A DNA stretch of 64,000 nucleotides from an uncultured Solirubrobacterales bacterium (GTDB taxonomy: Bacteria; Actinomycetota; Thermoleophilia; Solirubrobacterales; JBBDJG01). Every line of letters starts with the position of its first letter. Positions within the stretch are counted from its first letter, which is position 1. Shown one piece after another: positions 32,782 through 58,539 of the stretch. Under the pieces are notes generated by a model. The model ran no database searches, was not told the DNA's origin, and saw only the letters and a list, made by a program, of their open reading frames with translations. The position numbers were made by a program, and so were the translations under genes. The DNA is taken from the NCBI GenBank assembly GCA_963774075.1, contig CAVZDP010000003.1:408062-472061 (forward strand), written 5' to 3'.

Positions 32782-32786
32782 TCGGC

Positions 32787-37948: not shown

Positions 37949-37952
37949 CGGG

Positions 37953-40559: not shown

Positions 40560-41114
40560 ATGGCAGGTCAAAAGACGGAGCTGAGAAGGCTGAACTGGGG
40601 CTGCGGCCCCTGGACGGTGGAGGGATGGATCAACTCGGACATCGCGGACCACCCCGGGGTGGAGCTCGTCTGCGACATTCGGGAGGGGTTGCCGCTCGAG
40701 GACGAGAGCATCGACTATGCCGTCAGCAACCATGCTCTGCCCGAGATTCCCTACTCCGACCTGCTGCCCACGCTGGACGAGCTCCGGCGGGTGCTGAAGC
40801 CAGGCGGCGTCCTGCGCCTGGCGCTGCCCGACATGGACAAGGGCATCGACGCCTACCGGTCCGGCGAGGAGGACTACTTCCTCATTCCCAACGAGGAGTG
40901 GCGCAGCATCGGCTCGAAGTTCGTCGTGCAGATGGTCTGGTACGGCTACTCACGCACGATGTTCAACCACGACTTCGTCGCGGAGCTGCTCATCAAGGCG
41001 CAGTTCTCGCAGGTCACTCGCTGCGAGTTCCAGCAGACGGCGAGCCCGTACCCGGAGATCGTCGAGATCGACAACCGCGAACGCGAGAGCCTGTTCGTCG
41101 AGGCAGTCAGGTAG
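40560..41114 (+). CDS. Class I SAM-dependent methyltransferase (small)
   Basis: It reads LRRLNWGCGPWTVEGWINSD..ESIDYAVSNHALPEIPY..LRRVLKPGGVLRLALPD. 184 aa. Confidence 0.75.
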   Translation: MAGQKTELRRLNWGCGPWTVEGWINSDIADHPGVELVCDIREGLPLEDESIDYAVSNHALPEIPYSDLLPTLDELRRVLKPGGVLRLALPDMDKGIDAYRSGEEDYFLIPNEEWRSIGSKFVVQMVWYGYSRTMFNHDFVAELLIKAQFSQVTRCEFQQTASPYPEIVEIDNRERESLFVEAVR

Positions 41115-41125
41115 GGCTTGCCGCC

Positions 41126-44413: not shown

Positions 44414-44898
44414 ACCCTCTCTCTCGGAGTTGGGGCGCCCTCCCGCTCGAGGATCACGACCGGGATCTCTCGGTGCGTCAACCGCCGGTACTGCTCAAAT
44501 CCGGAGTACTGCTCGAGAATGCTCGGCCACAGCCGATTCTCCTCTTCGGCCGATGCACGCCTGGCACGAACTACGCGATGCTCCCCGCGGAAGTCGACTT
44601 CAGCTTGGGGATTCGCCTGAAGGTTGAGCCACCACGCGGGCGGACGGTCCTGCCCCGCATTTGACGGCACTACTACCAGGTCATCGCCGTGGGGCATGCA
44701 GGCTATGACCGTTGATCGTGCCGCCCCGGATTTACGCCCCGTCGTGGTGAGGGCGAGCACAGGCTGACCAGCCGCAAAGAGAAACGAGCGTTTGAGCCGG
44801 CCGCCGCTCATCCGCAGGATCCTTGCGTGTAGCCGAGTTACGCGGGTCGCGATGAAGCGAGGCCGGCTGAGGATGTTGCTAACGCGGGCCAGGCTCAC
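44410..44898 (-). CDS. Deazaflavin (F420H2)-dependent nitroreductase-family protein (DDN/DUF385-like), copy 1
   Basis: It reads VLALTTTGRKSGAARSTVIACMPHGDDLVVVPSNAGQDRPPAWWLNLQANPQAEVDFRGE..EENRLWPSILEQYSGFEQYRRLTHREIPVVILE. Its stop codon overlaps the convergent methyltransferase stop. Confidence 0.85.
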   Translation of the reverse strand: MSLARVSNILSRPRFIATRVTRLHARILRMSGGRLKRSFLFAAGQPVLALTTTGRKSGAARSTVIACMPHGDDLVVVPSNAGQDRPPAWWLNLQANPQAEVDFRGEHRVVRARRASAEEENRLWPSILEQYSGFEQYRRLTHREIPVVILEREGAPTPRERV

Positions 44899-45206
44899 CC
44901 GAAGAGCCTAACTCCTTTCGCGCAATGCACAAGCCCGCGAACCGAAGGTCGCATTAGCTACAACGGACCGGTTGGGAAGACGATCAGCTTTGCGGGCGGT
45001 TTCCTTTTGAGCCAACGCGGCTGCGTACCGCTCGAGGTGCGAGTTCGAGGGCGTCGTCCGACGCGCGCGCGCATTCCATTCGGCGTCGGTCGCTGCTGAG
45101 AGCAGTCGCGTCAGCGCCCAGACTTTTTTGGGTACTCGATCCACGCCGCCTGGGCCGTGGTTCGTCGCGGGACGCTGCTGGGTTTCGCGATGCGACAGCG
45201 CGGCTT

Positions 45207-45615
45207 CTACGTGGAGTCTTCCGCAATGCCAGCGGCTTCGAAGGCCCGGCTCCGATCGGTGTGTATCGAGAGGCGAGCGACCTTGCCGCCAACCAAGGTC
45301 CAGACATGGAAGAAGCGTTGCCAAACCTCGGAATCGCTTCCCTTTAGCCGCCCCCCGTCGCGGATGCGAGTGATCACCTGCTTCTCGTCGGCATAGACCA
45401 CCTCTTCGATTTCGATACGGAAATCGTCAAAGGTCTTCCAGTACGGAAGCATGCTTTCCTGGACGGCGTCGTATCCCCGAAGGACCCCAACCGTATCCAG
45501 GGGGACATCTGAATCATCAGATTCAAAGTCTGGCTCGAATAGCTCCCGAGGTGGCTCGAGGCGCACAGTGACCCCGTCATAGATACGCGACCACGTCGAG
45601 GTTCGCTTGCGACAT
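45207..45615 (-). pseudogene. NTF2/SnoaL-like protein gene with an apparent 1-nt frameshift after codon ~9
   Basis: ATG 45615 gives MSQANLDVVAYL then a stop at 45577. The +1 frame continues without a stop as RIYDGVTVRLEPP.. into the 119-aa ORF 45207-45566, which ends ..KVARLSIHTDRSRAFEAAGI. The total span is 409 nt (3n+1). Alternatively the gene simply starts at GTG 45566 and lacks the first helix. Confidence 0.5.
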
Positions 45616-45737
45616 CTCTCGCGGAGTATAGGTTCCTACCTCGCCGCTCCTGGCGGACCGCGGTGCTGCAGTTCGCGCAGGCAGTCGCACGGCCTCCGCG
45701 CAATCCAGCAGCGGCCGACCCGACCCCTGCGAACGAT

Positions 45738-46058
45738 CTACGAGCTCCGGGAACCAGTCTCTGAAGAAAAGCCGAGATCCAGCCCGCTCGTCTTGCCGCC
45801 CCCGCTGAAGTGCTGGAGCACGAGCACGCGCTCGCTGTCGAGTTCGCGAAACTCCTCCGCCTCGAAGCGGACGTCCTCCGAGGCGCTCAATCGTCCCCGC
45901 CAGGCCTCTGCCATCTCGGCTATCCCTTTGAAGTGCCCGGGATCTGGCCCGTCGGGTAGCACGTACTCGATCTCGGGGTGCGCCCATTCAGCAGAGCTCC
46001 AGTCGCCGCGCTCCCAGGCGGCGTAGAGGGACCGCACGAGATCCAGATTCGCCGACAC
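45738..46058 (-). CDS. NTF2/SnoaL-like protein, possibly 3'-disrupted
   Basis: An in-frame GTG at 46058 gives VSANLDLVRSLYAAWERGDWSSAEW..FKGIAEMAEAWRGRLSASEDVRFEAEEFRELDSERVLVLQHFSGGGKTSGLDLG. The ORF then ends in FSSETGSRSS without the expected last strands. The +1 frame reads LFFRDWFPELVDRSQ..AEAVRL, resembling the C-terminus of the neighbouring paralog. Confidence 0.5.
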   Translation of the reverse strand: MSANLDLVRSLYAAWERGDWSSAEWAHPEIEYVLPDGPDPGHFKGIAEMAEAWRGRLSASEDVRFEAEEFRELDSERVLVLQHFSGGGKTSGLDLGFSSETGSRSS

Positions 46059-46257
46059 GGTGAGCCAAGTATCCACGATTTCTATGTAGCTGAAGGGCTC
46101 GGGTCCGTGGACGCAGCGCTGCCCGCCCCGCGGTTCTCGTCCAGGACGCAAGTGATGGCCGATAAGCTGGAGTCGCCCCGGCGCACGACACCAGGACGGG
46201 TCCGTAGCTCACACACCGACACTGCACAGCTTCTCGCTGTGGGAGGGACGAGGCACG

Positions 46258-46518
46258 ATGGAAACGCTGCTTGTGTTTCACGAGGTAGACGACGTCGACC
46301 ACTGGCTCGCTTCACCGAAGCGAGAGGAATTCTTCGGGCCGCTGGGAATGACGGCGCGCACTTTTCGGGACCCGGCGGGCTCGAATCGGGTCGGGCTGAT
46401 CGTGGAGGTCCCGGACATCGCTGCCTGGGAGGAAGCACTGCAGACTGAGGCGGCGGCGGAGGCAATGAAGTTCGACGGTGTTCGCCCCGAGACGATCTTG
46501 GGCCTCGTGGAGGCGTAG
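46258..46518 (+). CDS. Small hypothetical protein (86 aa)
   Basis: The ATG start is at 46258. The sequence is non-repetitive and balanced in composition (METLLVFHEVDDVDHWLASPKREEFFGPLGMTARTFRDPAGSNRVGLIVEVPDIAAWEEAL..). No family assigned. Confidence 0.55.
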   Translation: METLLVFHEVDDVDHWLASPKREEFFGPLGMTARTFRDPAGSNRVGLIVEVPDIAAWEEALQTEAAAEAMKFDGVRPETILGLVEA

Positions 46519-46679
46519 CGCAAAGATCCGTTCCACGCGGCTGCCTTCCGGACCAACGCCGCGTGGCGGTCGTTTCTCGCGCAATGGGGCAGCGAGCATG
46601 GGCTGGCCAGATAAATCTCCCCCTTCGGAAGGGCCGGGCCGACTGCACGCAGCCGCCGTCGCGGCCGATCGGCGGATGC

Positions 46680-47513
46680 TCAGGAGCTCGCCGAGGTGAA
46701 ACGCAGAATCTCGGAGGCCACCAGCTCCGGGTCGTCGAACATCGCGGTGTGGCCGCAGCCGGTCAGCTCGCGCAACTCCCCGTCCGGCAGCTCGGCGAGG
46801 AATCGCTCGGCATGTTCGCGCGAAAAAAGTCGATCGCCGGACGGATGGAGGATGAGTACGGGACAGCTCACCCGCTCCAACCCATCGATCCGAGCGATCC
46901 CCCCGTCAGCGCCCGTGTTCGCGGCGAGGTGTGCGGCGACGTCGCAGTGGGCGAACTGGGCCAGCAGGCGCTCCGCCTCGACAGGCGGGATCCGGGACGG
47001 GTCGACGCAGTTGTCGGCTAGCAGCAGGCGTCTTCCCCGACGGACGTGAACCAGCCGACGCGCGAGCGGCTTTAGCATCCGGATCGTGCGGTGGTCGCGG
47101 CGAGACTTCTTCGCGAAGGCGTGCCATTCGTCGCGCGTGAACATCCCGGCGGGGGCAACCCCGACGACGGTTCGCGCCCGCCCGCGCTTGGCGAGCTCGA
47201 GCGCCAGCCAGCCGCCGAGTGAGTTGCCGGCGATGTCGGGCCGCTCGAATCCCGCGGCATCCAGCTCCGCTTCGACGGCGTCCGCCCAGGTCTCGACCGT
47301 GGGCGCGGCCCCGGCGTCGAGCGGCGGCGACCCGAGGTGGTCGGGAAGCGTCGGCGCGAGCACCTCGCGTTCAGCAGTGAGTCGGTCGAGTACGGGCGAC
47401 CAGCTGTGCCAGCTCTCCCAGATCCCGTGAAGCAAGAGGAGCGGCGCGCCGCTTCCGGCGCGGTAACGGTCGACTTCCACGCGCGGAGTATTCCACGGAC
47501 CGCGGCGATTCAC
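46680..47513 (-). CDS. Alpha/beta-hydrolase fold protein
   Basis: It reads APLLLLHGIWESWHSW..IAGNSLGGWLALELA (a GxSxG nucleophile elbow) ..CPVLILHPSGDRLF..GCGHTAMFDDPE. The GTG start at 47513 forms a GTGA overlap with the reconstructed stop of the upstream NTF2-like gene. The 345-aa track ORF fuses the two genes. Confidence 0.75.
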   Translation of the reverse strand: MNRRGPWNTPRVEVDRYRAGSGAPLLLLHGIWESWHSWSPVLDRLTAEREVLAPTLPDHLGSPPLDAGAAPTVETWADAVEAELDAAGFERPDIAGNSLGGWLALELAKRGRARTVVGVAPAGMFTRDEWHAFAKKSRRDHRTIRMLKPLARRLVHVRRGRRLLLADNCVDPSRIPPVEAERLLAQFAHCDVAAHLAANTGADGGIARIDGLERVSCPVLILHPSGDRLFSREHAERFLAELPDGELRELTGCGHTAMFDDPELVASEILRFTSASS

Positions 47514-47872
47514 GGAGGCTTGGACACGTGATCGAGGATGACTATGCCACGTCAGCGCCTGGAAGATCTCCATCGTGGTCATCGCGCCGCTTCGCCTTCG
47601 GAGCGCATGCACCATGGCGAACGCGAGCGTCTGCGCGCCAAGATCGAAGTACGCCTCGGATTCGATGCGAATGTCGTCCCGCCACACCTCCTCGAAGCCC
47701 TGGTACCACTCGCGCATCCCAGCTGTCCGCGATAGATGGTCACCCCGCCGACCGCCACAAGCCGCGAGTGAAACTCGATCTCGGGATCGCAGAGCGCGAT
47801 GATCGCCTCGATATCGCGGGCATTGAAAGCCTCGTAGACGCGTCGATGAAGCTCGACGTTCTCGGCCGACAC
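47510..47872 (-). pseudogene. NTF2/SnoaL-like gene interrupted by two compensating frameshifts
   Basis: The sequence VSAENVELHRRVYEAFNARDIEAIIALCDPEIEFHSRLVAVGGVTIYRG runs from 47872 in one frame. MREWYQGFEEVWRDDIRIESEAYFDLGAQTLAFAMVHA..EIFQALTW runs from 47717 in a second frame. The first frame then returns with RGIVILDHVSKPP and a stop at 47510-47512. The total is 363 nt (121 codons), a normal NTF2-like length. Confidence 0.55.
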
Positions 47873-47977
47873 GAGTCGCAGTATCGCGACGCCGCCCATC
47901 CGCGTAAAGGGGTCTCAGGGTGTTGCTCCTCGGCGATCAGAGCGCCACGCACCCCTTTTGTGTACGCGTCATGCTGT

Positions 47978-48517
47978 ATGGGTCCGACCCCGGAAAAGCA
48001 CTGGGAGATCGACGTCGCCGAACCACTGACCTACGCCCAGGCGAACCCGCTCCAGAAGTCGCTGCGCCGCTTCGCAGCCAGCCGCCCGGGCGCATGGCTC
48101 TTCGCGGGCATTCTGCATCACATCGATGAACCCGTGTACCGGCTTTCGCGAGGCCGGCACACGTTCGCGAGCCTGTTGTCAGGATTGCCCGTCGTCATGC
48201 TGACGACGACCGGCGCGCGCAGCGGTGTGCGGCGCTCGGCGCCGGTGCTCGGCGTTCCAACCGAATACGGCCTGGTCGTGATTGCGTCGTCCTGGGGCCA
48301 GGAGCGCCACCCTGCCTGGTACTACAACCTGCGCGCCAATCCCGAGGGTGAGGTCAGCGTCGACCGGACTACGCAGCGATTCCGCGCGACAGAGGCGCAG
48401 GGCGACCAGCGCGAACGGATCTGGCAACAGGCTGTGCGGATCTATCCGGGTTGGTCGACATACGAGCGGCGCGCTCCGCATCGGCGCATCCCCGTGCTCG
48501 TGCTCGACCCGGTCTGA
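47978..48517 (+). CDS. Deazaflavin (F420H2)-dependent nitroreductase-family protein (DDN/DUF385-like), copy 2
   Basis: An in-frame ATG at 47978 gives MGPTPEKHWEIDV.. It continues VVMLTTTGARSGVRRSAPVLGVPTEYGLVVIASSWGQERHPAWYYNLRANPEGEVSVD..RERIWQQAVRIYPGWSTYERRAPHRRIPVLVLD. The upstream part of the track ORF (from 47528) is antisense to other genes. Confidence 0.85.
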   Translation: MGPTPEKHWEIDVAEPLTYAQANPLQKSLRRFAASRPGAWLFAGILHHIDEPVYRLSRGRHTFASLLSGLPVVMLTTTGARSGVRRSAPVLGVPTEYGLVVIASSWGQERHPAWYYNLRANPEGEVSVDRTTQRFRATEAQGDQRERIWQQAVRIYPGWSTYERRAPHRRIPVLVLDPV

Positions 48518-48576
48518 ACCGGCTAGGTTCGCCCCCGCGGCAAGCCGGGAGCGCCGCGCACGCGACCCACGATCGG

Positions 48577-50139
48577 CTACCGCCTGGACACGCGTTCCAG
48601 CTCGCTACGAAGCGCGGGAAGATAGATCTGGATCTCCTGGTCGAGCGTGCCCACGCCCGACGTCGCCACGCGCACGGCCCCGTCCCGCCAGGGACGCAGC
48701 GAGCCGGTGACCGCGGACTCGCGGCCCCGCTTGCGCCGGAACTCCTCCTCCGAGCGCGTGTAGTAGTGGTTCACGCGCAAGCGCGAGAACGAGACCGACT
48801 TGGTCCGCATCCCCCCGACCGGGTACTCGCTCTCGTTCACGGCACTGCGAAAGCGGTACGAGAAGTGATGCGGGCTGCGTGCCTCCAGCGCCTCGCCCGG
48901 ATCGACGACGCTCTTGACGTAACGGCTCGCACCCCCCTCTATGCGCTGCTCGTAGCTCTCCACCACCAGGCCGGGCGGGGGAGTGACATGTCCGGACGTG
49001 CCGAAGTTGGCACGGTTCACGGCAACTGCGGGCCAGCGCTCGTATGCTCGCAGCACCTCCGGCAGCGGCCTGCCCGTGGGAGAGAAGAGGAACTCGTCGA
49101 GGTCGAGGAAGGCGATCCAGCGCGACTCGGGGCCGTGCTCCCGCAGAGCGTGCTCGAACGCCGACAGCTGACCGGGATGAGCGGGCCATTCGTGCAGCGT
49201 CACGGTCCCGTCGTCGAGATAGGGGGCCAGCGCCTCCAGGTGAGCGTCCGTGCTCTGATTGTCGTACAGGAAGAAACGCTCGACTCCGACGATGCGGTGG
49301 AAGGCCACCCACTCGCGCAGGTAGCGGGCCTCGTTGCGGTAGATGCCGCACGCGGCCAGGTAGGTCGGCTTGCCCGCGGCACGCGCGAGCCGGGACTCTT
49401 CCGTGCTCTCGGCCGGAGCGTCTACCGCCCAGAACTCGTGCTCCTGGGCGGCCGCGAAGATCAGACTCTGTGCATCGATCGCGTCTCGCACTGGCACGCC
49501 CGCCTCGCGCATGCGCCGCTCCACCTCCCGCACGAACGACAGATGCGCGGCGTACTCCTCCGCTGGCGACCGCTCGCTGACGGGCTCGCCGAGGATTCGC
49601 TCGAGCTTCACCAGCACCCTTCTGCGCATGATCGGAAACCGCTCCGGATCAAGCGCGAAGTTGAGGAGCGACCCGACCGCCAGGACGCGGTCGGGCGCGT
49701 CCACCACTGCCGAAGGCGCGTGCTCGGCCGCGCGCGCGAACGCCTCGAAGCGAGCCTGCGGCTCCGACCCGCCGCCCCGGAAGGCGGTGAGGGCACGGCC
49801 GAGCGACTCGGGCTCGGCGGCCGCCCACGCGCGAAGCGCGCGCAGGTCGGCGGGAGTCGTCAGCGTGTACAGCCGCGCGTCGAAGACGGAGTCGAGCGGG
49901 GCCAGCGCCTCTTCGACCACCGCGCGCACGTCCGATCCGGTGACGACCCGGTGGATCATCTCTTCCACGAGACCCGCGACCTCCGGCTTGAAGTCGCGCT
50001 CCTCTTCGTCGAAGGCGGACCTCGCCCGCGAGCGCGCGACGTAGGCCAGGAAGCGTTGCCATGCCTGAGCGGGCTCCGGGCGAGCGCTGAGAGGCTCGAC
50101 CGCCATTTCGCGAGCGAACACTACCCGTCGGCGCTGCAA
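48577..50139 (-). CDS. GT92-family (DUF23-like) glycosyltransferase with a ~260-aa unknown N-terminal domain
   Basis: The C-terminal half is YLAACGIYRNEARYLREWVAFHRIVGVERFFLYDNQSTDAHLEALAPYLDDGTVTLHEWP..RWIAFLDLDEFLFSP..VNRANFGTSGH..LRVNHYYTRSEEEF. The start is uncertain: TTG 50139, GTG 50121 or ATG 50106. Confidence 0.8.
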   Translation of the reverse strand: MQRRRVVFAREMAVEPLSARPEPAQAWQRFLAYVARSRARSAFDEEERDFKPEVAGLVEEMIHRVVTGSDVRAVVEEALAPLDSVFDARLYTLTTPADLRALRAWAAAEPESLGRALTAFRGGGSEPQARFEAFARAAEHAPSAVVDAPDRVLAVGSLLNFALDPERFPIMRRRVLVKLERILGEPVSERSPAEEYAAHLSFVREVERRMREAGVPVRDAIDAQSLIFAAAQEHEFWAVDAPAESTEESRLARAAGKPTYLAACGIYRNEARYLREWVAFHRIVGVERFFLYDNQSTDAHLEALAPYLDDGTVTLHEWPAHPGQLSAFEHALREHGPESRWIAFLDLDEFLFSPTGRPLPEVLRAYERWPAVAVNRANFGTSGHVTPPPGLVVESYEQRIEGGASRYVKSVVDPGEALEARSPHHFSYRFRSAVNESEYPVGGMRTKSVSFSRLRVNHYYTRSEEEFRRKRGRESAVTGSLRPWRDGAVRVATSGVGTLDQEIQIYLPALRSELERVSRR

Positions 50140-50149
50140 TAATGGGCTC

Positions 50150-51001
50150 GTGGGAGACCTTGGCGGCGGGAGCGCGAAGCAGGGCGCTCACTACCTCTCC
50201 GCCTGCGCGATCTACCGCGACGAGGGGCCCTACTTGCGCGAATGGATCGAGTTCCATCGGCTGGTCGGGGTGGAGCGCTTCTTCCTGTACGACAACGCAA
50301 GCCACGACGACCACCTTCAGGTGCTCGCGCCCTACCTCGACGAAGGGATCGTTACCCTCCACGACTGGCCGGTGTTCCCGGGGCAGCTTCAGGCTTACGA
50401 GCACGCGCTGCGAGAGCACGGCCCCGAGTCGCGCTGGATCGCCTTTCTCGACCTCGACGAGTTTCTCTTCTCTCCCACGGGCAGGCCGCTGCCGGAGATC
50501 CTCGCGGACTACGAGCAATACCCGGGGGTCGGAGCGAACTGGGCCGTCTTCGGCACCTCGGGCCACGTGGAGAAACCGCAGGGGCTGGTGACGGAGAGCT
50601 ACGTCTGGCGCTGCGAGGACGAGCAGGAGGGGAACCGACTCGTCAAGAGCATCGTCGACCCGACCCGGGCGGTCTCGTGTCCGGACCCGCACTTCTTCGT
50701 GTACGCCGACGGGGCACTCGCGGTGGACGAAAACAAGGAGACGATTCGCTACGGGCGAACCGCACCCCCCGCCTGGTCCCGCCTGCGGGTGAACCACTAC
50801 TTCACGAAGTCGGAGCAGGAGTTCCGCGCCAAGCTCGCCAAGGGCAAGGCCGACAAGCCAGAGGGCCGCGAGCCCGCCGTCGCAAACATCGCGCGGATCA
50901 CGGAGGCGCTCCACCGGGAGCGCGACGAGAAGATCCTGTCCTACGCGCCCGACCTGCTCGAAGCGCTGTCGCGCCGCCGGCGGGCCGCCCCGGCGACATG
51001 A
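50150..51001 (+). CDS. GT92-family glycosyltransferase (tandem copy 1 of 4)
   Basis: It reads YLSACAIYRDEGPYLREWIEFHRLVGVERFFLYDNASHDDHLQVLAPYLDEGIVTLHDWP..RWIAFLDLDEFLFSP..ANWAVFGTSGH..LRVNHYFTKSEQEF. The GTG start at 50150 is the only start codon upstream of the conserved YLS block. Confidence 0.85.
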   Translation: MGDLGGGSAKQGAHYLSACAIYRDEGPYLREWIEFHRLVGVERFFLYDNASHDDHLQVLAPYLDEGIVTLHDWPVFPGQLQAYEHALREHGPESRWIAFLDLDEFLFSPTGRPLPEILADYEQYPGVGANWAVFGTSGHVEKPQGLVTESYVWRCEDEQEGNRLVKSIVDPTRAVSCPDPHFFVYADGALAVDENKETIRYGRTAPPAWSRLRVNHYFTKSEQEFRAKLAKGKADKPEGREPAVANIARITEALHRERDEKILSYAPDLLEALSRRRRAAPAT

Positions 51002-51789
51002 GCGCGTACCTCTCCGCCGCCGCGATCTACCGCGACGAGGGGGCCTACCTGCGCGAGTGGATCGAGTTCCACCGCCTCGTCGGCGTGCAGCGGTTCTTCC
51101 TCTACGACAACCGCAGCTCCGACGATCACCTCGACGTGCTCGCACCCTACGTCGACGATGGAACAGCGGTGCTGCACGAGTGGCCCGAGGAGCCAGGCCA
51201 GCGCGGCGCATACGACCACTGTCTACGCGAGTACGGGAGCGATTCGCGCTGGATCGCGTTCCTCGACCTGGACGAGTTCCTCTTCTCGCCGACCCTTCAG
51301 CCGCTCTCCGAGCTGCTGGTGGAATACGAGCAATGGGCTGCCGTCGGCGTCAACCGCGCGACGTTCGGCACGTCCGGCCTGAAGACCAGGCCCGACGGGC
51401 TGGTGATCGAGAGCTACGTGATGTACTGGCCGATGGTGGCGAGCATCAAGAGCATCGTGGACCCGAGCCGCACCGTCCGCTACCAGAACCCGCACGCGTT
51501 CGTGTACCGCGACGACGGCTTCGCGGTCGACGAGCACAAAGGCCCGATCGAAGGCTGGTTCACGAAGGAGTTCACCCACGAGCGGCTTCAGATCAATCAC
51601 TACTACACGCGCTCGGAGGCCGAGTTCAGGCACAAGCTCGAGCACGGTCGAGCGGATACCGGCGAGCTGCGTGAGCAGCCGAAGAGTTGGGAGAGGGTGA
51701 GCGGGCGCGAGCGCGACGAGACGATCACCGCGTACGCGCCGGCGCTGAAGGAAGCTCTCGCGAGTCCCCCCACCACGACTGGCGCGTGA
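50998..51789 (+). CDS. GT92-family glycosyltransferase (tandem copy 2 of 4)
   Basis: The ATG at 50998 overlaps the upstream stop (ATGA). It reads MSAYLSAAAIYRDEGAYLREWIEFHRLVGVQRFFLYDNRSSDDHLDVLAPYVDDGTAVLHEWP..RWIAFLDLDEFLFSP..LQINHYYTRSEAEF. Confidence 0.85.
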   Translation: MSAYLSAAAIYRDEGAYLREWIEFHRLVGVQRFFLYDNRSSDDHLDVLAPYVDDGTAVLHEWPEEPGQRGAYDHCLREYGSDSRWIAFLDLDEFLFSPTLQPLSELLVEYEQWAAVGVNRATFGTSGLKTRPDGLVIESYVMYWPMVASIKSIVDPSRTVRYQNPHAFVYRDDGFAVDEHKGPIEGWFTKEFTHERLQINHYYTRSEAEFRHKLEHGRADTGELREQPKSWERVSGRERDETITAYAPALKEALASPPTTTGA

Positions 51790-52598
51790 AGCACTACCTC
51801 TCGGTCTGCGCGATCTATCGCGACGAGGCGTCCTACCTGCACGAATGGGTGACCCTGCACCGCCTCGCCGGCGTGGAGCACTTCTACCTCTACGACAACG
51901 GCAGCGTCGACGAGCACGAGGAGGTGCTCGAGCGCTACGTCGCCGAAGGCCTGGTGGACGTGCTTCCCTGGGACGTCCATCCGGGACAGCTGAAGGCCTA
52001 CGAGCACTGCCTGGCGGAGCGACGGGACGAGTCGCGCTGGATCGCGTTCATCGACATCGACGAGTTCCTCTTCTCCCCGACACTGCGCCCGCTCCCGGAG
52101 CTGCTGGCTGGATATGAGCAGTGGCCGGGAGTCGTCGCGAACTGGGCCGTTTTCGGCACGTCGGGCCACGAGACGAGGCCGGACGGACTCGTCATCGAGA
52201 GCTATCTGAATCGCTCCGGCAACGAGCGGCTGAACAGCCACGTCAAGACCATCGCGGACCCACGGCGAGTCGAGCGGCCGGGTGGCAACCCGCATTTCTT
52301 GGTCTACTCCGAGGGCGAAGCCGTCGATGAGACCGGAGGGCCGGTCGATGGGCCACCGTGGAGCTTCACGGCGGAGGTTCACTTCGACCTGCTGCGCGTC
52401 AACCACTACTACACGAAGTCCGAGCAGGAGTTCCGCACGAAACTCGCCAAGCCCAAGGCACATGGCCCGAAGTACCAGGTGCCCGTCGCCGAGCGCGAAC
52501 GCCTCGAGCCGGCGATTGCGGCGCTGAACGACATCGAGGACCGAACGATCCTCGCGTACCTTCCCAGGCTCCGAGAGGCGCTAGATGCGCTGCAATAA
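51786..52598 (+). CDS. GT92-family glycosyltransferase (tandem copy 3 of 4)
   Basis: The GTG at 51786 overlaps the upstream stop (GTGA). It reads VKHYLSVCAIYRDEASYLHEWVTLHRLAGVEHFYLYDNGSVDEHEEVLERYVAEGLVDVLPWD..RWIAFIDIDEFLFSP..LRVNHYYTKSEQEF. Confidence 0.85.
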   Translation: MKHYLSVCAIYRDEASYLHEWVTLHRLAGVEHFYLYDNGSVDEHEEVLERYVAEGLVDVLPWDVHPGQLKAYEHCLAERRDESRWIAFIDIDEFLFSPTLRPLPELLAGYEQWPGVVANWAVFGTSGHETRPDGLVIESYLNRSGNERLNSHVKTIADPRRVERPGGNPHFLVYSEGEAVDETGGPVDGPPWSFTAEVHFDLLRVNHYYTKSEQEFRTKLAKPKAHGPKYQVPVAERERLEPAIAALNDIEDRTILAYLPRLREALDALQ

Positions 52599-52607
52599 TC
52601 GCAGTCG

Positions 52608-53633
52608 TTGAAGCCGTACCTTTCCGTCTGGGCGCTCTATCAGGACGAGGCGCCGTATCTCCGAGAGTGGATCGAGTTCCACCGCCTGATGGGCGTGGAG
52701 CGCTTCTACCTGTACGACCACGACAGCGTCGACGACCACCGCGAGCAGCTCGCGCCCTACGTCGCCGACGGCACGGTGGTGTTTTACGACTGGCCGATCG
52801 ACCCGGGGCAGGTCCAGGCTGCCAACCATTGCCTCGAGCACCACCGAGACGAGACGCGCTGGCTCACCTTCCTCGACCTCGACGAGTTCCTCTTCTCGCC
52901 GACGGGCAGGCCGCTTCCCGAGGTGCTCGCCGACTACGAGCAGTGGCCCGGCGTCGTGGTCAACTGGGCGACGTTCGGCACGTGCGGCCACGAGACGCCG
53001 CCCGACGGGCTCGTGATCGAGAACTACACCTCCCGTACCGACAACCCTGGGATCAACGGGAACAAGAAGACGATCGTCGACCCGGCCCGCGTGATCCAGA
53101 ACCGTGGCGGGTTGTTCGACTACACCGAGGGCTTCTCGGTGGACGAAAACATGGAGCAGGCGGACGGCCGCGTGTCGGAGAAGGTCTCGTTCTCGCGCCT
53201 CCGGATCAACCACTATCACACGAAGTCGGCGATCGAGTTCGAGCGCAAGATCGCCAAGCCTCGAGCGGACCGGCGCGGCGTGCGAGATACGAGCAAGCGG
53301 CTGCGGGGGAAGATCCTGGGCGGCCTGAACGAGGTCCACGACGAGACGCTCGTCCCGTATGGGCCGGCGGTGCGCGAGGCGCTAGAGCGCACCGAGAGCC
53401 GCTGGCGCGAGGCGGGCGGTGGCGCGCGTGGCAACGCTTTCGAGGTCGACCCGCAGGCGCTCCAGTTCGCGCGCGACGTCCTGATGGGCGTCGCGGTCTG
53501 CTCGGCCGACGGCGATCCGTACCCGCACGTGGACCTGGTCGAGAAGGCGGCGGCCATGCTCGTCGGGCGGCCGTACCCCGAGCGCGACGGGCCCGAGACG
53601 CCCGAGACGTCCGAGACGTCCGAGACGGCGTAA
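52608..53633 (+). CDS. GT92-family glycosyltransferase (tandem copy 4 of 4) with a ~90-aa C-terminal extension
   Basis: The TTG start is at 52608. It reads MKPYLSVWALYQDEAPYLREWIEFHRLMGVERFYLYDHDSVDDHREQLAPYVADGTVVFYDWP..RWLTFLDLDEFLFSP..LRINHYHTKSAIEF. The tail ends in PETPETSETSETA. Confidence 0.85.
   Translation: MKPYLSVWALYQDEAPYLREWIEFHRLMGVERFYLYDHDSVDDHREQLAPYVADGTVVFYDWPIDPGQVQAANHCLEHHRDETRWLTFLDLDEFLFSPTGRPLPEVLADYEQWPGVVVNWATFGTCGHETPPDGLVIENYTSRTDNPGINGNKKTIVDPARVIQNRGGLFDYTEGFSVDENMEQADGRVSEKVSFSRLRINHYHTKSAIEFERKIAKPRADRRGVRDTSKRLRGKILGGLNEVHDETLVPYGPAVREALERTESRWREAGGGARGNAFEVDPQALQFARDVLMGVAVCSADGDPYPHVDLVEKAAAMLVGRPYPERDGPETPETSETSETA
53592..53627 (+). repeat. Four tandem 9-nt units (CCCGAGACG x2, TCCGAGACG x2) encoding PET-PET-SET-SET at the 3' end of the last GT92 gene
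   Basis: Read directly from the sequence. The units lie at 53592-53600, 53601-53609, 53610-53618 and 53619-53627. The stop codon is at 53631-53633. Confidence 0.9.
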
Positions 53634-53636
53634 CCG

Positions 53637-54797
53637 ATGCCCGCGGTTGTCGTCGGCGGCGCTGTCGCCAACAAGCTGCTGAACGGCGGCGAGGCCTGGG
53701 TTCGCCTGAGCTGGCTGCTGGGCCTGGCGCGGCTGGGCTGCGACACGTACTTCGTCGAACAGATACACCCTTCGAGCTGCGTGGACCGCGACGGGCGACC
53801 CGCGGAGTTCGAGGACTCCGCCAACCGTCGGTACTTCGACGCGGTCATGCGCGAGTTCGGGCTCGAGCGCTCGTCGGCGCTGCTCCTCGAGGGGAGCGAG
53901 CACACGAGCGGCATGGCCTACGACGATCTACTCGAGCTGGCGGCATCGGCCGACCTGCTGATCAACGTCAGCGGTCACCTCAGCGCCGAGCCGGTCATGA
54001 CGCGGCTGCGGCGCAAGGCCTACGTCGACCTCGACCCCGGCTTCACCCAGTTCTGGCACGCGAGCGGCCGCCCCGGCGCCCGCCTGGAGGGACACGACTG
54101 GTTCTTCACGGTGGGCGAGAACATCGGGAGACCGTCCAGCACCGTGCCCACCGGGGGCATCGACTGGCGCCCCGTGCGCCCACCCGTCGTGCTCGACGAG
54201 TGGCCTCGGGCGGAGATTCTCGAAGCGCGGCGCTTCACGACGATCGCCACCTGGCGCAGCGGTTACGGCACGGTGGAGCACGAAGGCCGCACGTACGGCC
54301 TCAAGGTGCACGAGTTCCGCAAGATCGTGGACCTTCCCCGGCGCGTGCGCGCCCGTTTCGAGCTCGCGCTCGACATCCATCCCGGCGACTCACGCGATCT
54401 GGAGTCGCTTCGCGAGCATGGCTGGCAGATCGTGGACCCGCGGGAGGTGGCGGTGACCCCGGATGCGTTCCGCGCCTACGTGCAGGGCTCCGGAGCTGAG
54501 TTCTCGGTGGCGCAGGGCGTCTACGTCGACACGCGCTCCGGCTGGTTCAGCGACAGGACCGTGCGTTACCTCGCCTCGGGAAGGCCGGCTCTGGTGCAGG
54601 AGACCGGGTTCAGCGACAACTACCCGACGGGCGAGGGCCTGCTCTCCTTCTCGTCGCTCGAGGAGGCGGTGGCGGGCGCCGACGCGATCGAATCCCGCTA
54701 TGAGGAGCACAGCGAGGCGGCGCGGGCGCTGGCGGAGCGCTTCTTCGACTCAGACGACGTCCTGAGCTCGTTTCTGGAGCAGGTGGGAGTTCGGTAG
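53637..54797 (+). CDS. ~380-aa GT-B-like protein (family member 3 of 4)
   Basis: It reads MPAVVVGGAVANKLLNGGEAWVRLSWLLGLARLGCDTYFVE..LINVSGH..AYVDLDPGFTQFW..SGWFSDRTVRYLASGRPALVQETGFS..GLLSFSSLEEAV. It is colinear with the ORFs at 39332 and 55586 and with the N-terminus of the ORF at 4103. Confidence 0.8.
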   Translation: MPAVVVGGAVANKLLNGGEAWVRLSWLLGLARLGCDTYFVEQIHPSSCVDRDGRPAEFEDSANRRYFDAVMREFGLERSSALLLEGSEHTSGMAYDDLLELAASADLLINVSGHLSAEPVMTRLRRKAYVDLDPGFTQFWHASGRPGARLEGHDWFFTVGENIGRPSSTVPTGGIDWRPVRPPVVLDEWPRAEILEARRFTTIATWRSGYGTVEHEGRTYGLKVHEFRKIVDLPRRVRARFELALDIHPGDSRDLESLREHGWQIVDPREVAVTPDAFRAYVQGSGAEFSVAQGVYVDTRSGWFSDRTVRYLASGRPALVQETGFSDNYPTGEGLLSFSSLEEAVAGADAIESRYEEHSEAARALAERFFDSDDVLSSFLEQVGVR

Positions 54798-55562
54798 ATG
54801 AGCGATCCCACGAGCCACGCGCAGCACGGGGACCCGGCGCAGGCGCCCGCTGCGACCCCGGACTGGCCCACCTTCCCCGGCGGTCCGCGCGCTCAGCGGC
54901 TGCACTCGATGGTGATGACGCGCCACTTCATCCTGATACACGTCCCGCGCACGGGCGGACAGTTCATTCGCAAGGTGTGCTTCGAGCACCTGCCGGCGAC
55001 GTGGTTCATCCGCAACGCGCTCGACGCGCATACTCCGTACGACGTGATCGCGGACGACTTCGCCCAGCTCCCGATGTTCGCTGTGGCACGCAATCCGTGG
55101 GACTGGTACGTGTCCTGGTACCACTACCTGACCCAGACCGACGCCGCCGACAGGACCGGCCCGATGTGGACCTCCGCCTTCGACAGCGGTAGAAGCGACT
55201 TCAAGTCCACGGTCACGGCAGCGTGCAGCGGGCGCGGGTTCACCAACCCGCGCACGGAGCCCATCATGCGCGAGCTCGACTGCGACCACCTCTCCGCCGT
55301 CTACATGCGGATCGCGGGCCGGGGAGTGGATGCCGGGCGCGTGCAGGTCGGGCGCTTCGAATCGCTCCAGCTCGATTTCCTCGCGTTCCTCGAGCGCCAT
55401 CAGGTGCCGACCGGGCGCGCGTTCGAGCGAACGGTCATGGCCGAGCCACCGTTCGGGTCCAGCAAGCGGGGGCGCTACCAGGACTACTACGACGATGAGC
55501 TGCGCGATCTGGTGGCCGAGAAGGCGCGCCGCCTGATCGCCGCCCACGGGTACGAGTTCTGA
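54798..55562 (+). CDS. Sulfotransferase-family protein (HxPRTGG type)
   Basis: It reads FILIHVPRTGGQFIRKV (the PAPS-binding loop) and is related to the ORF at 37349. ATG 54798 directly abuts the upstream TAG. An alternative start at ATG 54909 (MVMTRHF) would match the paralog's N-terminus. Confidence 0.7.
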   Translation: MSDPTSHAQHGDPAQAPAATPDWPTFPGGPRAQRLHSMVMTRHFILIHVPRTGGQFIRKVCFEHLPATWFIRNALDAHTPYDVIADDFAQLPMFAVARNPWDWYVSWYHYLTQTDAADRTGPMWTSAFDSGRSDFKSTVTAACSGRGFTNPRTEPIMRELDCDHLSAVYMRIAGRGVDAGRVQVGRFESLQLDFLAFLERHQVPTGRAFERTVMAEPPFGSSKRGRYQDYYDDELRDLVAEKARRLIAAHGYEF

Positions 55563-55585
55563 GCGACCGCCGGCTGAGACTGATC

Positions 55586-56719
55586 GTGAGCGGGATGGTC
55601 GCCGCCGTCCCGCGTCAGGGGGGCGCCGCCTGGGCGGTGCTCCAGTACGTGCTCGGGCTGCGGCGGCTGGGCCACGAGGTCCTGCTCGTGGAGGAGTACG
55701 GCCAGCGACCGGACGAGTCGGGCGGAAAGCCGCTCGCCCAGTCCGCGGCAGGCCTCTACTTCAGCGGACTCGCCTCCCGCTTCGGGATCGAGGACTCCGC
55801 GGCGCTCCTGCGCGCCGGGAGCGAGGAGACGGTCGGGCTGCCGTACGCGCGCCTCGTCGAAGCGGCCGCCGGCGCCGACGCACTCGTCAACATCTCGGGC
55901 ATCCTCACCGACGAGCGCCTGCTCGAGCCGATACCCGTCCGCGTCTACCTCGACCTCGATCCCGCGTTCACGCAGCTGTGGCAGGACGAGGGCATCGACA
56001 TGCGCTTCGGCGGCCACACGCACTTCGCGACGGTCGGCAAGGCGATCGGCACGCCAGAGTGCGACCTCCCCACGTGCGGGCGCGACTGGATCACGACCCT
56101 CCCACCCGTCGTGCTGGAGCACTGGCCGCGAGCAGAGAAGATCGAGCACGACGCTCTCACCACCATCGCGAACTGGCGCGGTTACGGCTCGGTGGAGCGC
56201 GACGGCGTTCATTACGGCCAGAAGGTTCATTCGCTGCGCGAGCTGATCGAGCTTCCCCTCAAGGCCCCGATCCGCTTCCTGCTCGCCCTCGCGATCCACC
56301 CGGACGAGGCGCGCGACCTCGAGGCACTCGAGCGCAACGGATGGGAGTTGACGAGCGCCGACCTCGCCGCCGGCACGCCGGACGCCTACCGCGACTTCAT
56401 CCGGGGATCGCTGGCCGAGTTCGGGTTCGCCAAGAGCGGCTACGTGCTGTCTGGCTCCGGCTGGTTCAGTGATCGCAGCGCCTGCTATCTGGCGTCCGGG
56501 CGGCCGGTGATCGCGCAGGAGACCGGCTGGAGCCGGTTCATCCCCGCCGGAGAGGGACTGTTCGCGTTCAGCAGCCAGGAAGACGTCGTCGCTGCTGTCG
56601 TCGAGATGAAGAGCGACTATGAGCGTCATGCCCGCGCCGCTCGGCGGCTGGCAGAGCGCCATCTGGACTCGGACGTGGTGTTGCCGCGCCTCTTGTCAGA
56701 GCTCGGTCTGGACGCGTGA
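55586..56719 (+). CDS. ~380-aa GT-B-like protein (family member 4 of 4)
   Basis: It reads GGAAWAVLQYVLGLRRLGHEVLLVE..LVNISGI..VYLDLDPAFTQLW..SGWFSDRSACYLASGRPVIAQETGWS..GLFAFSSQEDVV. Confidence 0.8.
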   Translation: MSGMVAAVPRQGGAAWAVLQYVLGLRRLGHEVLLVEEYGQRPDESGGKPLAQSAAGLYFSGLASRFGIEDSAALLRAGSEETVGLPYARLVEAAAGADALVNISGILTDERLLEPIPVRVYLDLDPAFTQLWQDEGIDMRFGGHTHFATVGKAIGTPECDLPTCGRDWITTLPPVVLEHWPRAEKIEHDALTTIANWRGYGSVERDGVHYGQKVHSLRELIELPLKAPIRFLLALAIHPDEARDLEALERNGWELTSADLAAGTPDAYRDFIRGSLAEFGFAKSGYVLSGSGWFSDRSACYLASGRPVIAQETGWSRFIPAGEGLFAFSSQEDVVAAVVEMKSDYERHARAARRLAERHLDSDVVLPRLLSELGLDA

Positions 56720-57735
56720 CCCAAACCTCAGACGCCGACCTCCGCGCGGGGCTCGAGCGGGCGCTCGCCGAGGCGTCCGCGCAGCCGGGGCCCATCGCGC
56801 GCCTGGAGCGCCGTCCCTGTCCCTACCAGACGAGCTTCACACTCGAGGAGCTCGACGTCGAGCTCGAAGGCGGAGAGACGCTGGAGCTGGTCTTCAAGGA
56901 CCTCGCTCGCGACGCCCTGTCCGAGGAGGCACGCGATGCCAAGCCGGCCTTCCTGCACGACCCGGAGCGCGAGATCGAGGCCTACTCACGTGTGCTCTCG
57001 AACGCCGGCCTCGGCACGCCCCGCTTCTACGGCGCGGCCGTGGAGCCTCGACTCTCCCGCTACTGGCTCTTCATCGAGCGGGTCGAGGGAGTGCCGCTCT
57101 GGCAGATCGGGGAGCTCGAGCGCTGGCGGCACGTCGCTCGCTGGCTGGCTCGGATGCACGAACGCTTCCTGAGCGAGCGAGCGCCGTGGGAGGACGCGAG
57201 GCATCTGCTTCGGTACGACGCGGACCTCTTCAGGGTCTGGCCCGAGCGCGCCCGCGACCTGGCGCGGCGGGCGACGGACGAGGAGGCGCCCTCCCGGCTC
57301 GAGCGAATCGAGTGGATCGCCGCCCGCTACGAGCCGGTCGTGGAGCGCCTCGGTTCGCTCCAACAGACGTTCCTGCACGGCGAGCTCTACGCCTCAAACG
57401 TGCTGATACCCGAAACGGGCTCGGAAGGCCGCGTGAGCCCGATCGACTGGGAGCAGGCCGCGATCGGGCCGGGCATGATCGACCTCGCCGCGCTGTCCGC
57501 AGGGGATTGGGACGAAGAGCAGCGCGCTTCGCTCGCCGACGCCTACGCAGGAGCGCTCGAGCGCCCGGAGGCGCTCGGCGCCGGCCCGGAGGACATCACC
57601 GGGTCACTGGACTGCTGCCTGCTGCATCTGGCGATGCAGTGGCTGGGCTGGGCAGAGCGCTGGCGGCCGCCGCGAGAGCACGCGCACGACTGGCTCGAGG
57701 AGGCGACGGGAGCGGCGCAGAGGCTGGGCCTGTGA
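56716..57735 (+). CDS. Aminoglycoside/choline-kinase-like phosphotransferase (APH fold) with Glu in place of the usual catalytic-loop Asp
   Basis: The GTG start overlaps the upstream stop (GTGA). It reads LVFKDL..YWLFIERVEG..FLHGELYASNVLI..VSPIDWEQAAIGPGMIDLA, which has the layout of the HGDxxxxN / IDW(E/D) kinase motifs but with HGE. Confidence 0.7.
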   Translation: MTQTSDADLRAGLERALAEASAQPGPIARLERRPCPYQTSFTLEELDVELEGGETLELVFKDLARDALSEEARDAKPAFLHDPEREIEAYSRVLSNAGLGTPRFYGAAVEPRLSRYWLFIERVEGVPLWQIGELERWRHVARWLARMHERFLSERAPWEDARHLLRYDADLFRVWPERARDLARRATDEEAPSRLERIEWIAARYEPVVERLGSLQQTFLHGELYASNVLIPETGSEGRVSPIDWEQAAIGPGMIDLAALSAGDWDEEQRASLADAYAGALERPEALGAGPEDITGSLDCCLLHLAMQWLGWAERWRPPREHAHDWLEEATGAAQRLGL

Positions 57736-57775
57736 GCGGGGTGGGCCCGGTCGATCCGGGATCATCCGAGCTGAG

Positions 57776-58480
57776 ATGATGATTTCGCAGGACGGCCGCT
57801 TCCTGATCGTGAACGCCGATGACTTCGGTCACAGCGCGGGCGTCAACGCCGGCGTCATCAAGGCCCACGAGCGCGGGATCGTGACGAGCGCGAGCCTGAT
57901 GGTGCGAGGCGGCGCCGCTGCCGGGGCGGCGGCCTACGGGCGCGGCTCGTCGCTCAGCCTGGGACTGCACGTCGACCTCGGAGAGTGGTCCTGGGGCGAT
58001 GGCGACTGGGTGGAGCGCTACGAGGTGGTCCCGATGGAGGATGGGGCGGCCGTCGAGGGAGAGGTGCGGCGCCAGCTCGAGCGCTTTCACGAGCTGGTCG
58101 GGCGCGGCCCCAGTCACTTGGACTCGCATCAGCACGTCCACACCTCCGAGCCGGCCGCGGGCGTGCTCGTGCGGCTGGCGCAGGAGCTGGGCGTGCCGTT
58201 GAGGCACAGCGGCCAGGTCCGCTACTGCGGGGACCTCTACGGGCAAACCTCCACCGGCGAGCCGATGCGGGAGGCGATCGGGGTCGAAAACCTGATCGAG
58301 ATCCTGCGCCGGCTCGAGCCGGGGGTCACCGAGCTCGCCTGCCACCCCGGCGAGGGCAGCGACATCGACTCCCCCTACCGTTACGAGCGCGAGGAGGAGC
58401 TGAGCGCCCTCTGCGATTCGAGGGTTCGCGCGACGATCGAGGCCGAGGGCATAGTCCTTCGATCTTTCGCGGACATTTAG
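57776..58480 (+). CDS. YdjC/ChbG-family carbohydrate deacetylase
   Basis: It reads FLIVNADDFGHSAGVNAGVIKAHERGIVTSASLMV..LGLHVDL..HLDSHQHVH, the hallmark YdjC motifs. Confidence 0.8.
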   Translation: MMISQDGRFLIVNADDFGHSAGVNAGVIKAHERGIVTSASLMVRGGAAAGAAAYGRGSSLSLGLHVDLGEWSWGDGDWVERYEVVPMEDGAAVEGEVRRQLERFHELVGRGPSHLDSHQHVHTSEPAAGVLVRLAQELGVPLRHSGQVRYCGDLYGQTSTGEPMREAIGVENLIEILRRLEPGVTELACHPGEGSDIDSPYRYEREEELSALCDSRVRATIEAEGIVLRSFADI

Positions 58481-58539
58481 CCTCCCCCCGCACCGCGACC
58501 GCCGAGGCCGGGGGCCGCCGACCTGTAACTTTCCCGCTC

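Follow-up and report, generated by a model that had tools for sequence, protein, structure and literature searches.

What would five adjacent family 92 glycosyltransferase (GT92) genes do for a soil actinobacterium, and do all five belong to one system? A preliminary description of a 64,000-nucleotide stretch of DNA from an uncultured Solirubrobacterales bacterium (the window) reported such an array and called it unusual, in a family whose bacterial members were said to be essentially uncharacterized. On the latter point our literature search agrees, as it found no study characterizing a bacterial GT92 enzyme. To our knowledge, the only activity class demonstrated for GT92 is that of an inverting, UDP-Gal-dependent beta-1,4-galactosyltransferase.

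Five paralogs, four of them in a tightly coupled tandem

All five open reading frames were recovered. Gene A (48577-50139, 520 aa) is on the minus strand, with an alternative ATG start at 50106, and genes B (50150-51001, 283 aa), C (50998-51789, 263 aa), D (51786-52598, 270 aa), and E (52608-53633, 341 aa) follow on the plus strand. The junctions between the four plus-strand genes are exactly as tight as described. The ATG of C overlaps the stop codon of B (ATGA, 50998-51001), the GTG of D overlaps the stop codon of C (GTGA, 51786-51789), and the TAA stop of D (52596-52598) is followed, after 9 nt, by the TTG start of E at 52608. We placed the start of D at GTG 51786 rather than at the upstream TTG 51687 because its orthologs are 270 aa long; public databases contain a protein identical to D (P0001). 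B is a single-domain GT92 protein. E carries a C-terminal extension of approximately 70 aa with an acidic ETPETSETSETA tail at its end.

The three sequence motifs by which the array had been recognized match all five sequences in our alignment, which contains 81 invariant columns. Pairwise identity among the paralogs is 49 to 59% (49 to 57% for the catalytic domain of A against B-E), and the blastp E-values between copies, 1e-72 to 1e-98, rule out chance likeness. As described, copy A is divergently oriented, and in the alignment it has about 258 additional N-terminal residues. Only 10 nt lie between the start codons of A (50139) and B (50150); with A beginning at ATG 50106, the distance would be 43 nt. 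A 105-nt inverted repeat (49259-49363 and 50191-50295) is accounted for by the conserved motifs of A and B, which lie on opposite strands. Between positions 48000 and 54200, no terminator-like signal rose above background; a promoter scan gave no match with a consensus that may not suit the host organism.

A conserved, predicted operon within a glycan locus

Gene B is the first gene of a predicted 10-gene operon that ends with an APS kinase. Three nucleotides separate E from the remaining six genes (53637-59082, plus strand), which have intergenic distances of -4 to +40 nt and encode an unknown 386-aa protein, a 254-aa protein with weak likeness to sulfotransferases, a 377-aa paralog of the 386-aa protein, an APH-like kinase, a YdjC-family protein, and the APS kinase. 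Three Solirubrobacterales genomes share the core gene order. One of these, an independent metagenome-assembled genome (MAG) from another study (L001), contains the same four genes B-E in the same order as 1:1 orthologs, at 70 to 78% identity compared with 49 to 59% between paralogs. The orthologs of B (L001 8371-9219; 72% identity, dN/dS 0.22), C (9216-10004; 71%, 0.27), and D (10001-10813; 70%, 0.25) each group with their counterpart at 100% bootstrap; those of E (78% identity in L001 and 67% in L004; dN/dS 0.23) do so at 98 to 100%. L004, a complete chromosome assembly, has a three-gene version of the array with no counterpart of D. The downstream gene order is likewise conserved, as far as the APS kinase in L004 and, in L001, up to the YdjC-family gene at the end of the contig. 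The tandem B-E is old, and each of its copies is under purifying selection.

In L001 and L004, the upstream modification gene directly adjoins the GT92 array. Here, a lineage-specific block (44410-48517) lies between an upstream methyltransferase gene (43643-44413) and gene A; neither this block nor gene A occurs at the two syntenic loci. By Pfam, the block encodes two F420H2-dependent quinone reductases, two SnoaL-like proteins, and one alpha/beta hydrolase; it stands apart from the glycan pathway. Gene A lies within a lineage-specific insertion. We found no convincing flanking repeats that would mark mobile-element boundaries around the insertion at 44410-50139.

The surrounding glycan locus extends over more than 45 kb and is rich in paralog sets, namely GT4, GT2, sulfotransferases, and methyltransferases; every enzyme class in it besides GT92 is also multiplied. 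A fused ABC exporter is encoded in the window as well. Within the window, we identified no priming phosphoglycosyl transferase, flippase, or polymerase, nor did we recognize any donor-sugar gene such as that for UDP-galactose 4-epimerase (GalE).

Based on these observations, we propose, with a probability of about 0.65, that B-E are distinct GT92 enzymes acting on one sulfated and methylated surface glycan and that A is an inserted member of a separate subfamily. B-E would be GT-A-fold enzymes with a DxD motif, presumably metal dependent and inverting, whose genes head the operon, sharing a transcript and coupled in translation. Each would most likely add a different sugar or linkage to the same growing glycan, which would be an intermediate, linked to a lipid or bound to a polymer, on the way to a cell-surface or extracellular polysaccharide. 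This glycan would also be methylated and sulfated by other products of the locus, with the PAPS donor made with the help of the operon's APS kinase. The likely donor, acceptor, and substrate class are extrapolated from eukaryotic enzymes, at approximately 16% identity in the fold alignment. That B-E have retained distinct functions is suggested by their 1:1 orthologs in conserved order, the bootstrap values of 98 to 100%, and dN/dS ratios of 0.22 to 0.27.

The copies could instead be alternative rather than sequential enzymes, the array being a diversification hot-spot at which gain and loss of GT92 genes alters the surface glycan, for example under pressure from phages or predators. Such a role would fit the variable copy number (three in L004, four in L001, four plus A here), the independent recurrence of multi-copy arrays in distant phyla, and the multiplication of the other enzyme classes. 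We regard it as possible but rather unlikely, since four copies keep 1:1 orthology, order, and purifying selection at approximately 70 to 78% protein identity, and since translational coupling suggests equal co-production and not a choice between copies.

Four orthologous paralogs in a conserved operon, together with sulfation and methylation genes, provide a handy entry point to bacterial GT92, as any differences in specificity could be examined in parallel. From the surrounding genes, a glycan carrying sulfate and methyl groups is predicted in Solirubrobacterales; nearly all reports of sulfated polysaccharides from bacteria concern cyanobacteria (PMC8205485, PMC13390465). Our findings overturn nothing in current understanding.

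Family assignment and fold

The assignment to GT92 stands. When the PF01697 (Glyco_transf_92) model was run against the five copies, it was the best Pfam match in each, with scores of 72.6 to 87.9 bits (81.4 bits for B; 72.6 bits for A, over aa 264-462) against a gathering cut-off of 23 bits. The closest solved structure by sequence is also a GT92 protein (8d3t; E 4e-6). An AlphaFold model of A built from a 37-sequence alignment reached a pLDDT of 91.2 and a pTM of 0.91, compared with a pLDDT of 35 in single-sequence mode, and its best fold match in the PDB is poplar GalS1 (8d3t, GT92; E 1.7e-11), at about 16% identity over the fold alignment. In a library of viral structures, giant-virus GT92 proteins rank first. 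B-E are expected to have the same GT-A fold because they are 49 to 57% identical to the modelled A.

The DxD motif, D-[LI]-D-E-F, is invariant in the five copies and nearly invariant in the 37 homologs, and in A (D346-L-D348-E-F) it aligns with DVDEY of GalS1. Four histidines, H281, H300, H330, and H458 (the last in the NHY motif), are invariant in the five copies; the sequence alignment with GalS1 spans the N-terminal half only. A histidine catalytic base is reported for GalS1.

Could the proteins belong to GT2 (Glyco_tranf_2_4 or SpsA-like) rather than GT92? We consider this improbable. The GT2-like model PF13704 does pass its threshold in all five copies, at 58 to 63 bits, but it spans only the first 98 or so residues, and in every copy it is outscored by PF01697, whose match spans up to approximately 200 residues. 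PF00535 passes in copy C only, and its scores across the copies are 27 bits at most. GT2 structures are the next-best fold matches of the A model, led by SunS (E 7e-6) with others weaker, yet the E-value of GalS1 is better than that of SunS by more than 5 orders of magnitude. Homologs are named GT92 by NCBI and JGI, and close ones already carry the label "glycosyltransferase family 92 protein" in public annotation. Some cross-hits to GT2 are to be expected because the two families have the GT-A fold in common. The five copies are new members of a known CAZy family, GT92.

Gene A and its N-terminal domain

In gene A, an all-helical, acidic N-domain (49375-50082, minus strand; aa ~20-255; pI 5.2, net charge -9) precedes the GT92 catalytic domain (48577-49365, minus strand; aa 259-520). 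The preliminary description had assigned no function to the extra domain, and it indeed matches no Pfam, NCBIfam, or PADLOC model. A lax Pfam scan of individual N-domain members revealed no family common to more than one of them. Comparison of an N-domain profile with PDB sequences gave only weak helical matches (HP0242, two 12-bit pieces), which we judged not credible.

Relatives of the N-domain emerged from an exhaustive search, which returned 225 representatives; a word-index search of 8,000 candidates had found none. GT92 is present in 61 of the best 150 of the 225 relatives. Among 62 scanned relatives that lack GT92, 33 contain an AAA_5 domain of the McrB type, and some of the remainder contain EVE, PUA-like, HNH, Mrr_N, MrcB_N, or methyltransferase domains. 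Fusions of the N-domain with sugar-type methyltransferases (FkbM and CmcI/rhamnosyl O-methyltransferase kinds) also occur. Gene A belongs to a separate "N-domain + GT92" subfamily; its closest relative, P0122 (58% identity, bootstrap 100%), has the same two-domain architecture. By analogy with CBM95 on plant GalS1, the N-domain is most likely a targeting, partner-binding, or acceptor-binding module, although acceptor binding leaves its occurrence on McrB restriction subunits unexplained.

A more far-reaching interpretation, to which we assign a low probability, takes the ~235-aa N-domain as an undescribed family spanning GT92, sugar-type methyltransferases, and McrB, and allows protein A a non-polysaccharide substrate. 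If these proteins did have a common ligand, such as a modified or glycosylated polymer or a shared partner, the domain would tie surface-glycan or DNA glycosylation to modification-dependent restriction. In any case, domain annotation gains a minor lead of its own from the unnamed domain common to A and McrB.

It is very unlikely that A acts on a nucleic-acid or defence-related substrate, for example in DNA base glycosylation, and not on a polysaccharide. The idea draws on two observations: the N-domain stands at the start of true McrB proteins that also carry MrcB_N, EVE, PUA-like, or Mrr_N readers and are encoded beside McrC (as is P0213, an N-domain protein), and gene A lies outside the conserved operon. 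However, the catalytic domain of A is 49 to 57% identical to B-E, the N-domain also occurs on the FkbM and CmcI/rhamnosyl kinds of methyltransferases, and no genes for defence or DNA modification adjoin the N-domain+GT92 genes of L003 and L005. The domain is moreover acidic in GT92 and McrB contexts alike (median pI 5.2 to 5.5, net charge -6 to -7); we considered a DNA-binding role, and this acidity makes direct DNA binding unlikely.

Bacterial GT92 arrays are not rare

The bacterial family comprises at least 1,213 clusters (90% identity) at E<=1e-5, and soil, rumen, and gut metagenomes are rich in its enzymes. The 80 species-level genomes with relatives come from Actinomycetota, Verrucomicrobiota, Bacillota, Bacteroidota, Chlamydiota, Pseudomonadota, and others, and approximately 14 of the 80 loci contain arrays of 2 to 4 copies, with separate 3- to 4-copy arrays in Selenomonadales and Verrucomicrobiae MAGs. 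With such numbers, the statement that five in a row is unusual was too strong. What remains of it is a conserved four-gene tandem; the fifth gene is of a different subfamily and was apparently brought by the lineage-specific insertion. The local count of five is the highest among the loci examined because an N-domain subfamily member adjoins the array. We conclude that the five-copy array is a real, fairly ordinary expansion. The tandem arrangement itself is all that speaks for a recent amplification or for the assembly collapse or expansion raised in the preliminary description, and these have a negligible probability because the copies have diverged (49 to 59% protein identity, pS of about 0.5 between neighbours) and because synteny is conserved in independent assemblies, as four genes in a MAG and as three in a complete chromosome.

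Comparison with known systems

Uncharacterized bacterial GT92 genes of Solirubrobacterales and many other phyla are direct homologs of the array at 50 to 78% identity, and they include the syntenic four-gene (L001) and three-gene (L004) arrays. The plant beta-1,4-galactan synthase GalS1/GALS1 (8d3t, 8d3z) has PF01697, the GT-A fold, and the aligned DxD motif in common with A-E. GalS1 is a modular GT92 protein with an N-terminal acceptor-binding module (PMC11062476), and gene A is similarly modular, with an accessory domain before the catalytic domain. The plant enzyme is a type II membrane protein of the Golgi, and its accessory module, CBM95, is a beta-sandwich, whereas the accessory domain of A is all-helical, B-E are bare catalytic domains of ~265 aa, and A-E have no membrane segment. 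Specifically, the N-terminal signal-anchor transmembrane helix typical of eukaryotic GT92 is absent from A-E in a 19-residue Kyte-Doolittle scan (maxima of 0.76 to 1.18, none exceeding 1.2), and B-E are predicted to be soluble cytoplasmic enzymes. The signal-anchor helix is an architectural difference and not a criterion of the CAZy family.

Animal GT92 proteins (C. elegans GALT-1, the nematode family, and the pigeon beta-1,4-galactosyltransferase) belong to the same CAZy and Pfam family. These eukaryotic enzymes work on N-glycans in the secretory pathway, and, unlike B-E, they are encoded outside operons. In nematodes and plants, GT92 has typically expanded into many paralogs.

A subset of McrB proteins of McrBC type IV restriction systems carries the ~220-aa helical domain of A at the N terminus, with E-values for that domain down to 1e-19 to 1e-34 by local phmmer. 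The accessory domain alone is common to the two: protein A consists of the N-domain and GT92 only, without an AAA+ GTPase (AAA_5) domain or a DNA-reader domain, and there is no McrC-like partner gene near it.

The locus as a whole can be compared with wps-1 of the actinomycete Actinoplanes, which is predicted to make a sulfated exopolysaccharide by a Wzx/Wzy route and for which GT92 is unmentioned (PMC13390465). In our window, no Wzx, Wzy, or Wzz gene was recognized and a fused ABC exporter is found instead; a sulfated product is predicted here as well. Both loci include a SAM methyltransferase and a kinase-like protein (PMC13390465), and both, like the xss/synechan cluster of Synechocystis, combine glycosyltransferases with sulfotransferases (PMC8205485, PMC13390465).

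Five GT92 glycosyltransferase genes, four in a coupled tandem

The array comprises five paralogous genes: A (48577-50139; 520 aa) lies on the minus strand, and B (50150-51001; 283 aa), C (50998-51789; 263 aa), D (51786-52598; 270 aa), and E (52608-53633; 341 aa) follow one another on the plus strand. We recovered all five ORFs at exactly the coordinates assigned in the preliminary description, and the three motifs quoted there are present in the protein alignment, 81 columns of which are invariant. Pairwise identity ranges from 49 to 59% (blastp E values of 1e-72 to 1e-98). The tight coupling claimed for B-E is likewise exact, with overlaps at ATGA (50998) and GTGA (51786) and a 9-nt gap between the TAA stop codon of D and the TTG start codon of E; the stop codon of E is 3 nt from the start of the following gene. 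A and B diverge from start codons (TTG, 50139, and GTG, 50150) separated by only 10 nt; taking the ATG at 50106 as the start of A widens this to 43 nt. Either spacing would leave room for promoters only within a coding region, unless the transcripts are leaderless; a sigma-70 consensus scan for promoters at these starts gave no match. At its 3' end (53597-53630), E contains about three copies of a 9-nt tandem repeat resembling CCGAGACGT, encoding an acidic ETPETSETSETA tail. The E ortholog in a related genome (GCA_038330145.1, locus L001) is shorter by 11 aa, so tail length may vary.

Sequence places these proteins in GT92, as proposed, and the modelled fold of A agrees. The Pfam model PF01697 (Glyco_transf_92) matches all five at 72.6 to 87.9 bits (cut-off, 23); PF13704, a related GT-A model, gives lower scores and reaches only the first ~98 residues. 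With a five-copy profile, the top solved sequence match was the poplar galactan synthase GalS1 (PDB 8d3t; E value, 4e-6), in which DVDEY aligns with a DLDEF motif invariant in A-E. An AlphaFold model of A, built from a 37-sequence alignment (pLDDT, 91.2; pTM, 0.91), also had GalS1 as its top PDB fold match (E value, 1.7e-11), followed by the GT2 enzymes SunS and SpsA (7e-6 to 3e-5); in a viral structure library, giant-virus GT92 proteins ranked first. Eukaryotic GT92 enzymes are type II membrane proteins, whereas a search for hydrophobic segments found none in A-E, which indicates that they are soluble. The five proteins are genuine additions to a bacterial GT92 branch that is known but unexplored biochemically.

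The tandem copies are old and individually conserved

The nearest relatives are Solirubrobacterales MAGs, one of which, L001, contains four tandem GT92 genes (282, 262, 270, and 330 aa) with the same gene order and flanking genes as B-E. Each of B-E pairs with one L001 gene at 70 to 78% identity, well above the identity among paralogs, and all four ortholog pairs have neighbor-joining bootstrap values of 98 to 100% and dN/dS ratios of 0.22 to 0.27. In a complete Solirubrobacterales chromosome (OY970293.1, locus L004), the syntenic locus is compact and has three copies, namely one B-like gene and orthologs of C and E, with no D. The orthologs, synteny, and dN/dS together show that the duplications predate these lineages and that each copy is held by selection.

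These observations bear on the main rival to our reading of B-E as transferases of distinct specificity, which is that the GT92 copies are alternative, diversifying enzymes. The variation in GT92 copy number among relatives is in its favor; the strict orthology and translational coupling of the copies count against it. The one-to-one orthologs, the synteny in L001 and L004, and the dN/dS ratios exclude an assembly artefact or a recent amplification of the tandem.

Bacterial GT92 is a very large family, with at least 1,213 clusters at an E value of ≤1e-5, many of them already auto-named GT92, and relatives were detected in 80 species-level genomes spanning many phyla. An HMM scan found at least two copies inside a 10-kb span in about 14 of the 80 loci, and three or four copies in 6, including Selenomonadales and Verrucomicrobiae MAGs. 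The preliminary description considered five in a row unusual. Five is indeed the highest count among these loci, but it is reached only because A adjoins a conserved four-gene array, and multicopy loci as such recur.

The array belongs to a large glycan locus

B-E are the first of ten consecutive genes on the same strand, separated by -4 to +40 nt, and a terminator scan of 48000-54200 gave no signal exceeding background. Directly after E come a 386-aa protein of unknown function (53637-54797), a weakly sulfotransferase-like 254-aa protein (54798-55562), a 377-aa paralog of the 386-aa protein (55586-56719), an APH-like kinase, a YdjC-family protein, and, as the last gene, an APS kinase (58480-59082). 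This order is kept in L004, and in L001 as far as its contig end. The 386- and 377-aa proteins, both kept in L001 and L004, are 48% identical to each other and are homologous (36%) to the N-terminal ~390 residues (window 4103-5300) of an 832-aa GT2 protein (4103-6601); their sole Pfam match is a weak one to Glyco_trans_1_2. Convergent on the end of this putative operon is a minus-strand gene for a 1,170-aa protein (59101-62613) that has no match in Pfam or NCBIfam and a counterpart at the same position in L004 (50% identity). It adjoins a minus-strand RTX calcium-binding repeat protein gene at the right window edge (62591-64000).

Upstream of the array are six GT4 paralogs, four ~640-aa GT2 paralogs, two more GT2 genes plus a partial one clipped at the left window edge, one GT1-like gene, a fused ABC exporter, four methyltransferases, and three sulfotransferases. 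Two of the sulfotransferases are clear (36011-37336 and 37938-39335); the third is a sulfotransferase-like ORF in another frame (~41100-42315). The region 17397-35964 consists of repeated modules (an unknown ~300-aa gene, two GT4 genes, and a ~640-aa GT2 gene), two of them full (20832-26240 and 26335-31743) and one shorter (31813-35964), with an inverted GT2-GT4 pair at 17397-20837. The GT4 copies are 45 to 60% identical and the GT2 copies 41 to 48%. Thus, the GT92 array is one paralog set among several in a >45-kb glycan locus equipped for methylation and PAPS-dependent sulfation. Also in the window is a 1,469-aa protein (9000-13409) that combines three PKD domains with a glucose/sorbosone dehydrogenase propeller.

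Gene A carries a domain shared with McrB

A and an adjoining 4.1-kb block are missing from L001 and L004. The block (44410-48517), between the cluster methyltransferase and A, is made up of small, unrelated genes for two F420H2-dependent quinone reductases, two SnoaL-like proteins, and an alpha/beta hydrolase; no mobile-element signature was seen around it. The extra N-terminal domain of A (N-domain; residues ~20-255; 49375-50082, minus strand) is acidic (pI 5.2) and all-helical in the model. It matched no Pfam, NCBIfam, or PADLOC model, and its profile had no credible match among PDB sequences.

An exhaustive search yielded 225 representative N-domain relatives. GT92 is present in 61 of the best 150, and McrB-type AAA_5 in 33 of 62 others scanned, some of which additionally have an EVE, PUA-like, MrcB_N, Mrr_N, or HNH domain. 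A few relatives are methyltransferase fusions, with the FkbM and CmcI/rhamnosyl O-methyltransferase types represented. Those that are true McrB proteins have MrcB_N, AAA_5, and McrB_lid domains and an adjacent McrC, as in P0213 (locus L082, 6001-8784), where the N-domain is N-terminal. This domain common to A and McrB is the one unexpected element of the array. The catalytic domain of A clusters with P0122, another N-domain-GT92 protein (bootstrap, 100%). Such genes also occur in loci L003 (two, divergent) and L005, with unrelated housekeeping genes as neighbors. In L005, a homolog of the propeller protein (10914-12707) is 80 nt downstream of the N-domain-GT92 gene, a possible recurrent association.

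A model for the array and comparison with known systems

The best-supported reading is that B-E are transferases of distinct specificities serving one methylated, sulfated glycan. They would be co-produced, soluble, DxD-dependent GT-A enzymes acting on a single glycan intermediate, with the same pathway methylating and sulfating the product. Family membership, fold, the DxD motif, gene coupling, orthology, and selection rest on the results above; the sugars, the acceptor, the order of action, product sulfation, and the part played by the N-domain are elements of this model that we infer. A would be an accessory-domain variant. GalS1 carries a CBM95 module (PMC11062476), and by analogy the N-domain probably functions in targeting or in partner or acceptor binding.

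From the sulfotransferases, the sulfotransferase-like 254-aa protein, and the APS kinase, we predict that this Solirubrobacterales-type actinobacterium makes a sulfated glycan. A comparable gene combination is found in an Actinoplanes cluster, where sulfotransferases, a methyltransferase, and a kinase-like protein were read as a sulfated-exopolysaccharide cluster (PMC13390465); apart from that case, the sulfated polysaccharides described in bacteria are mainly cyanobacterial (PMC8205485).
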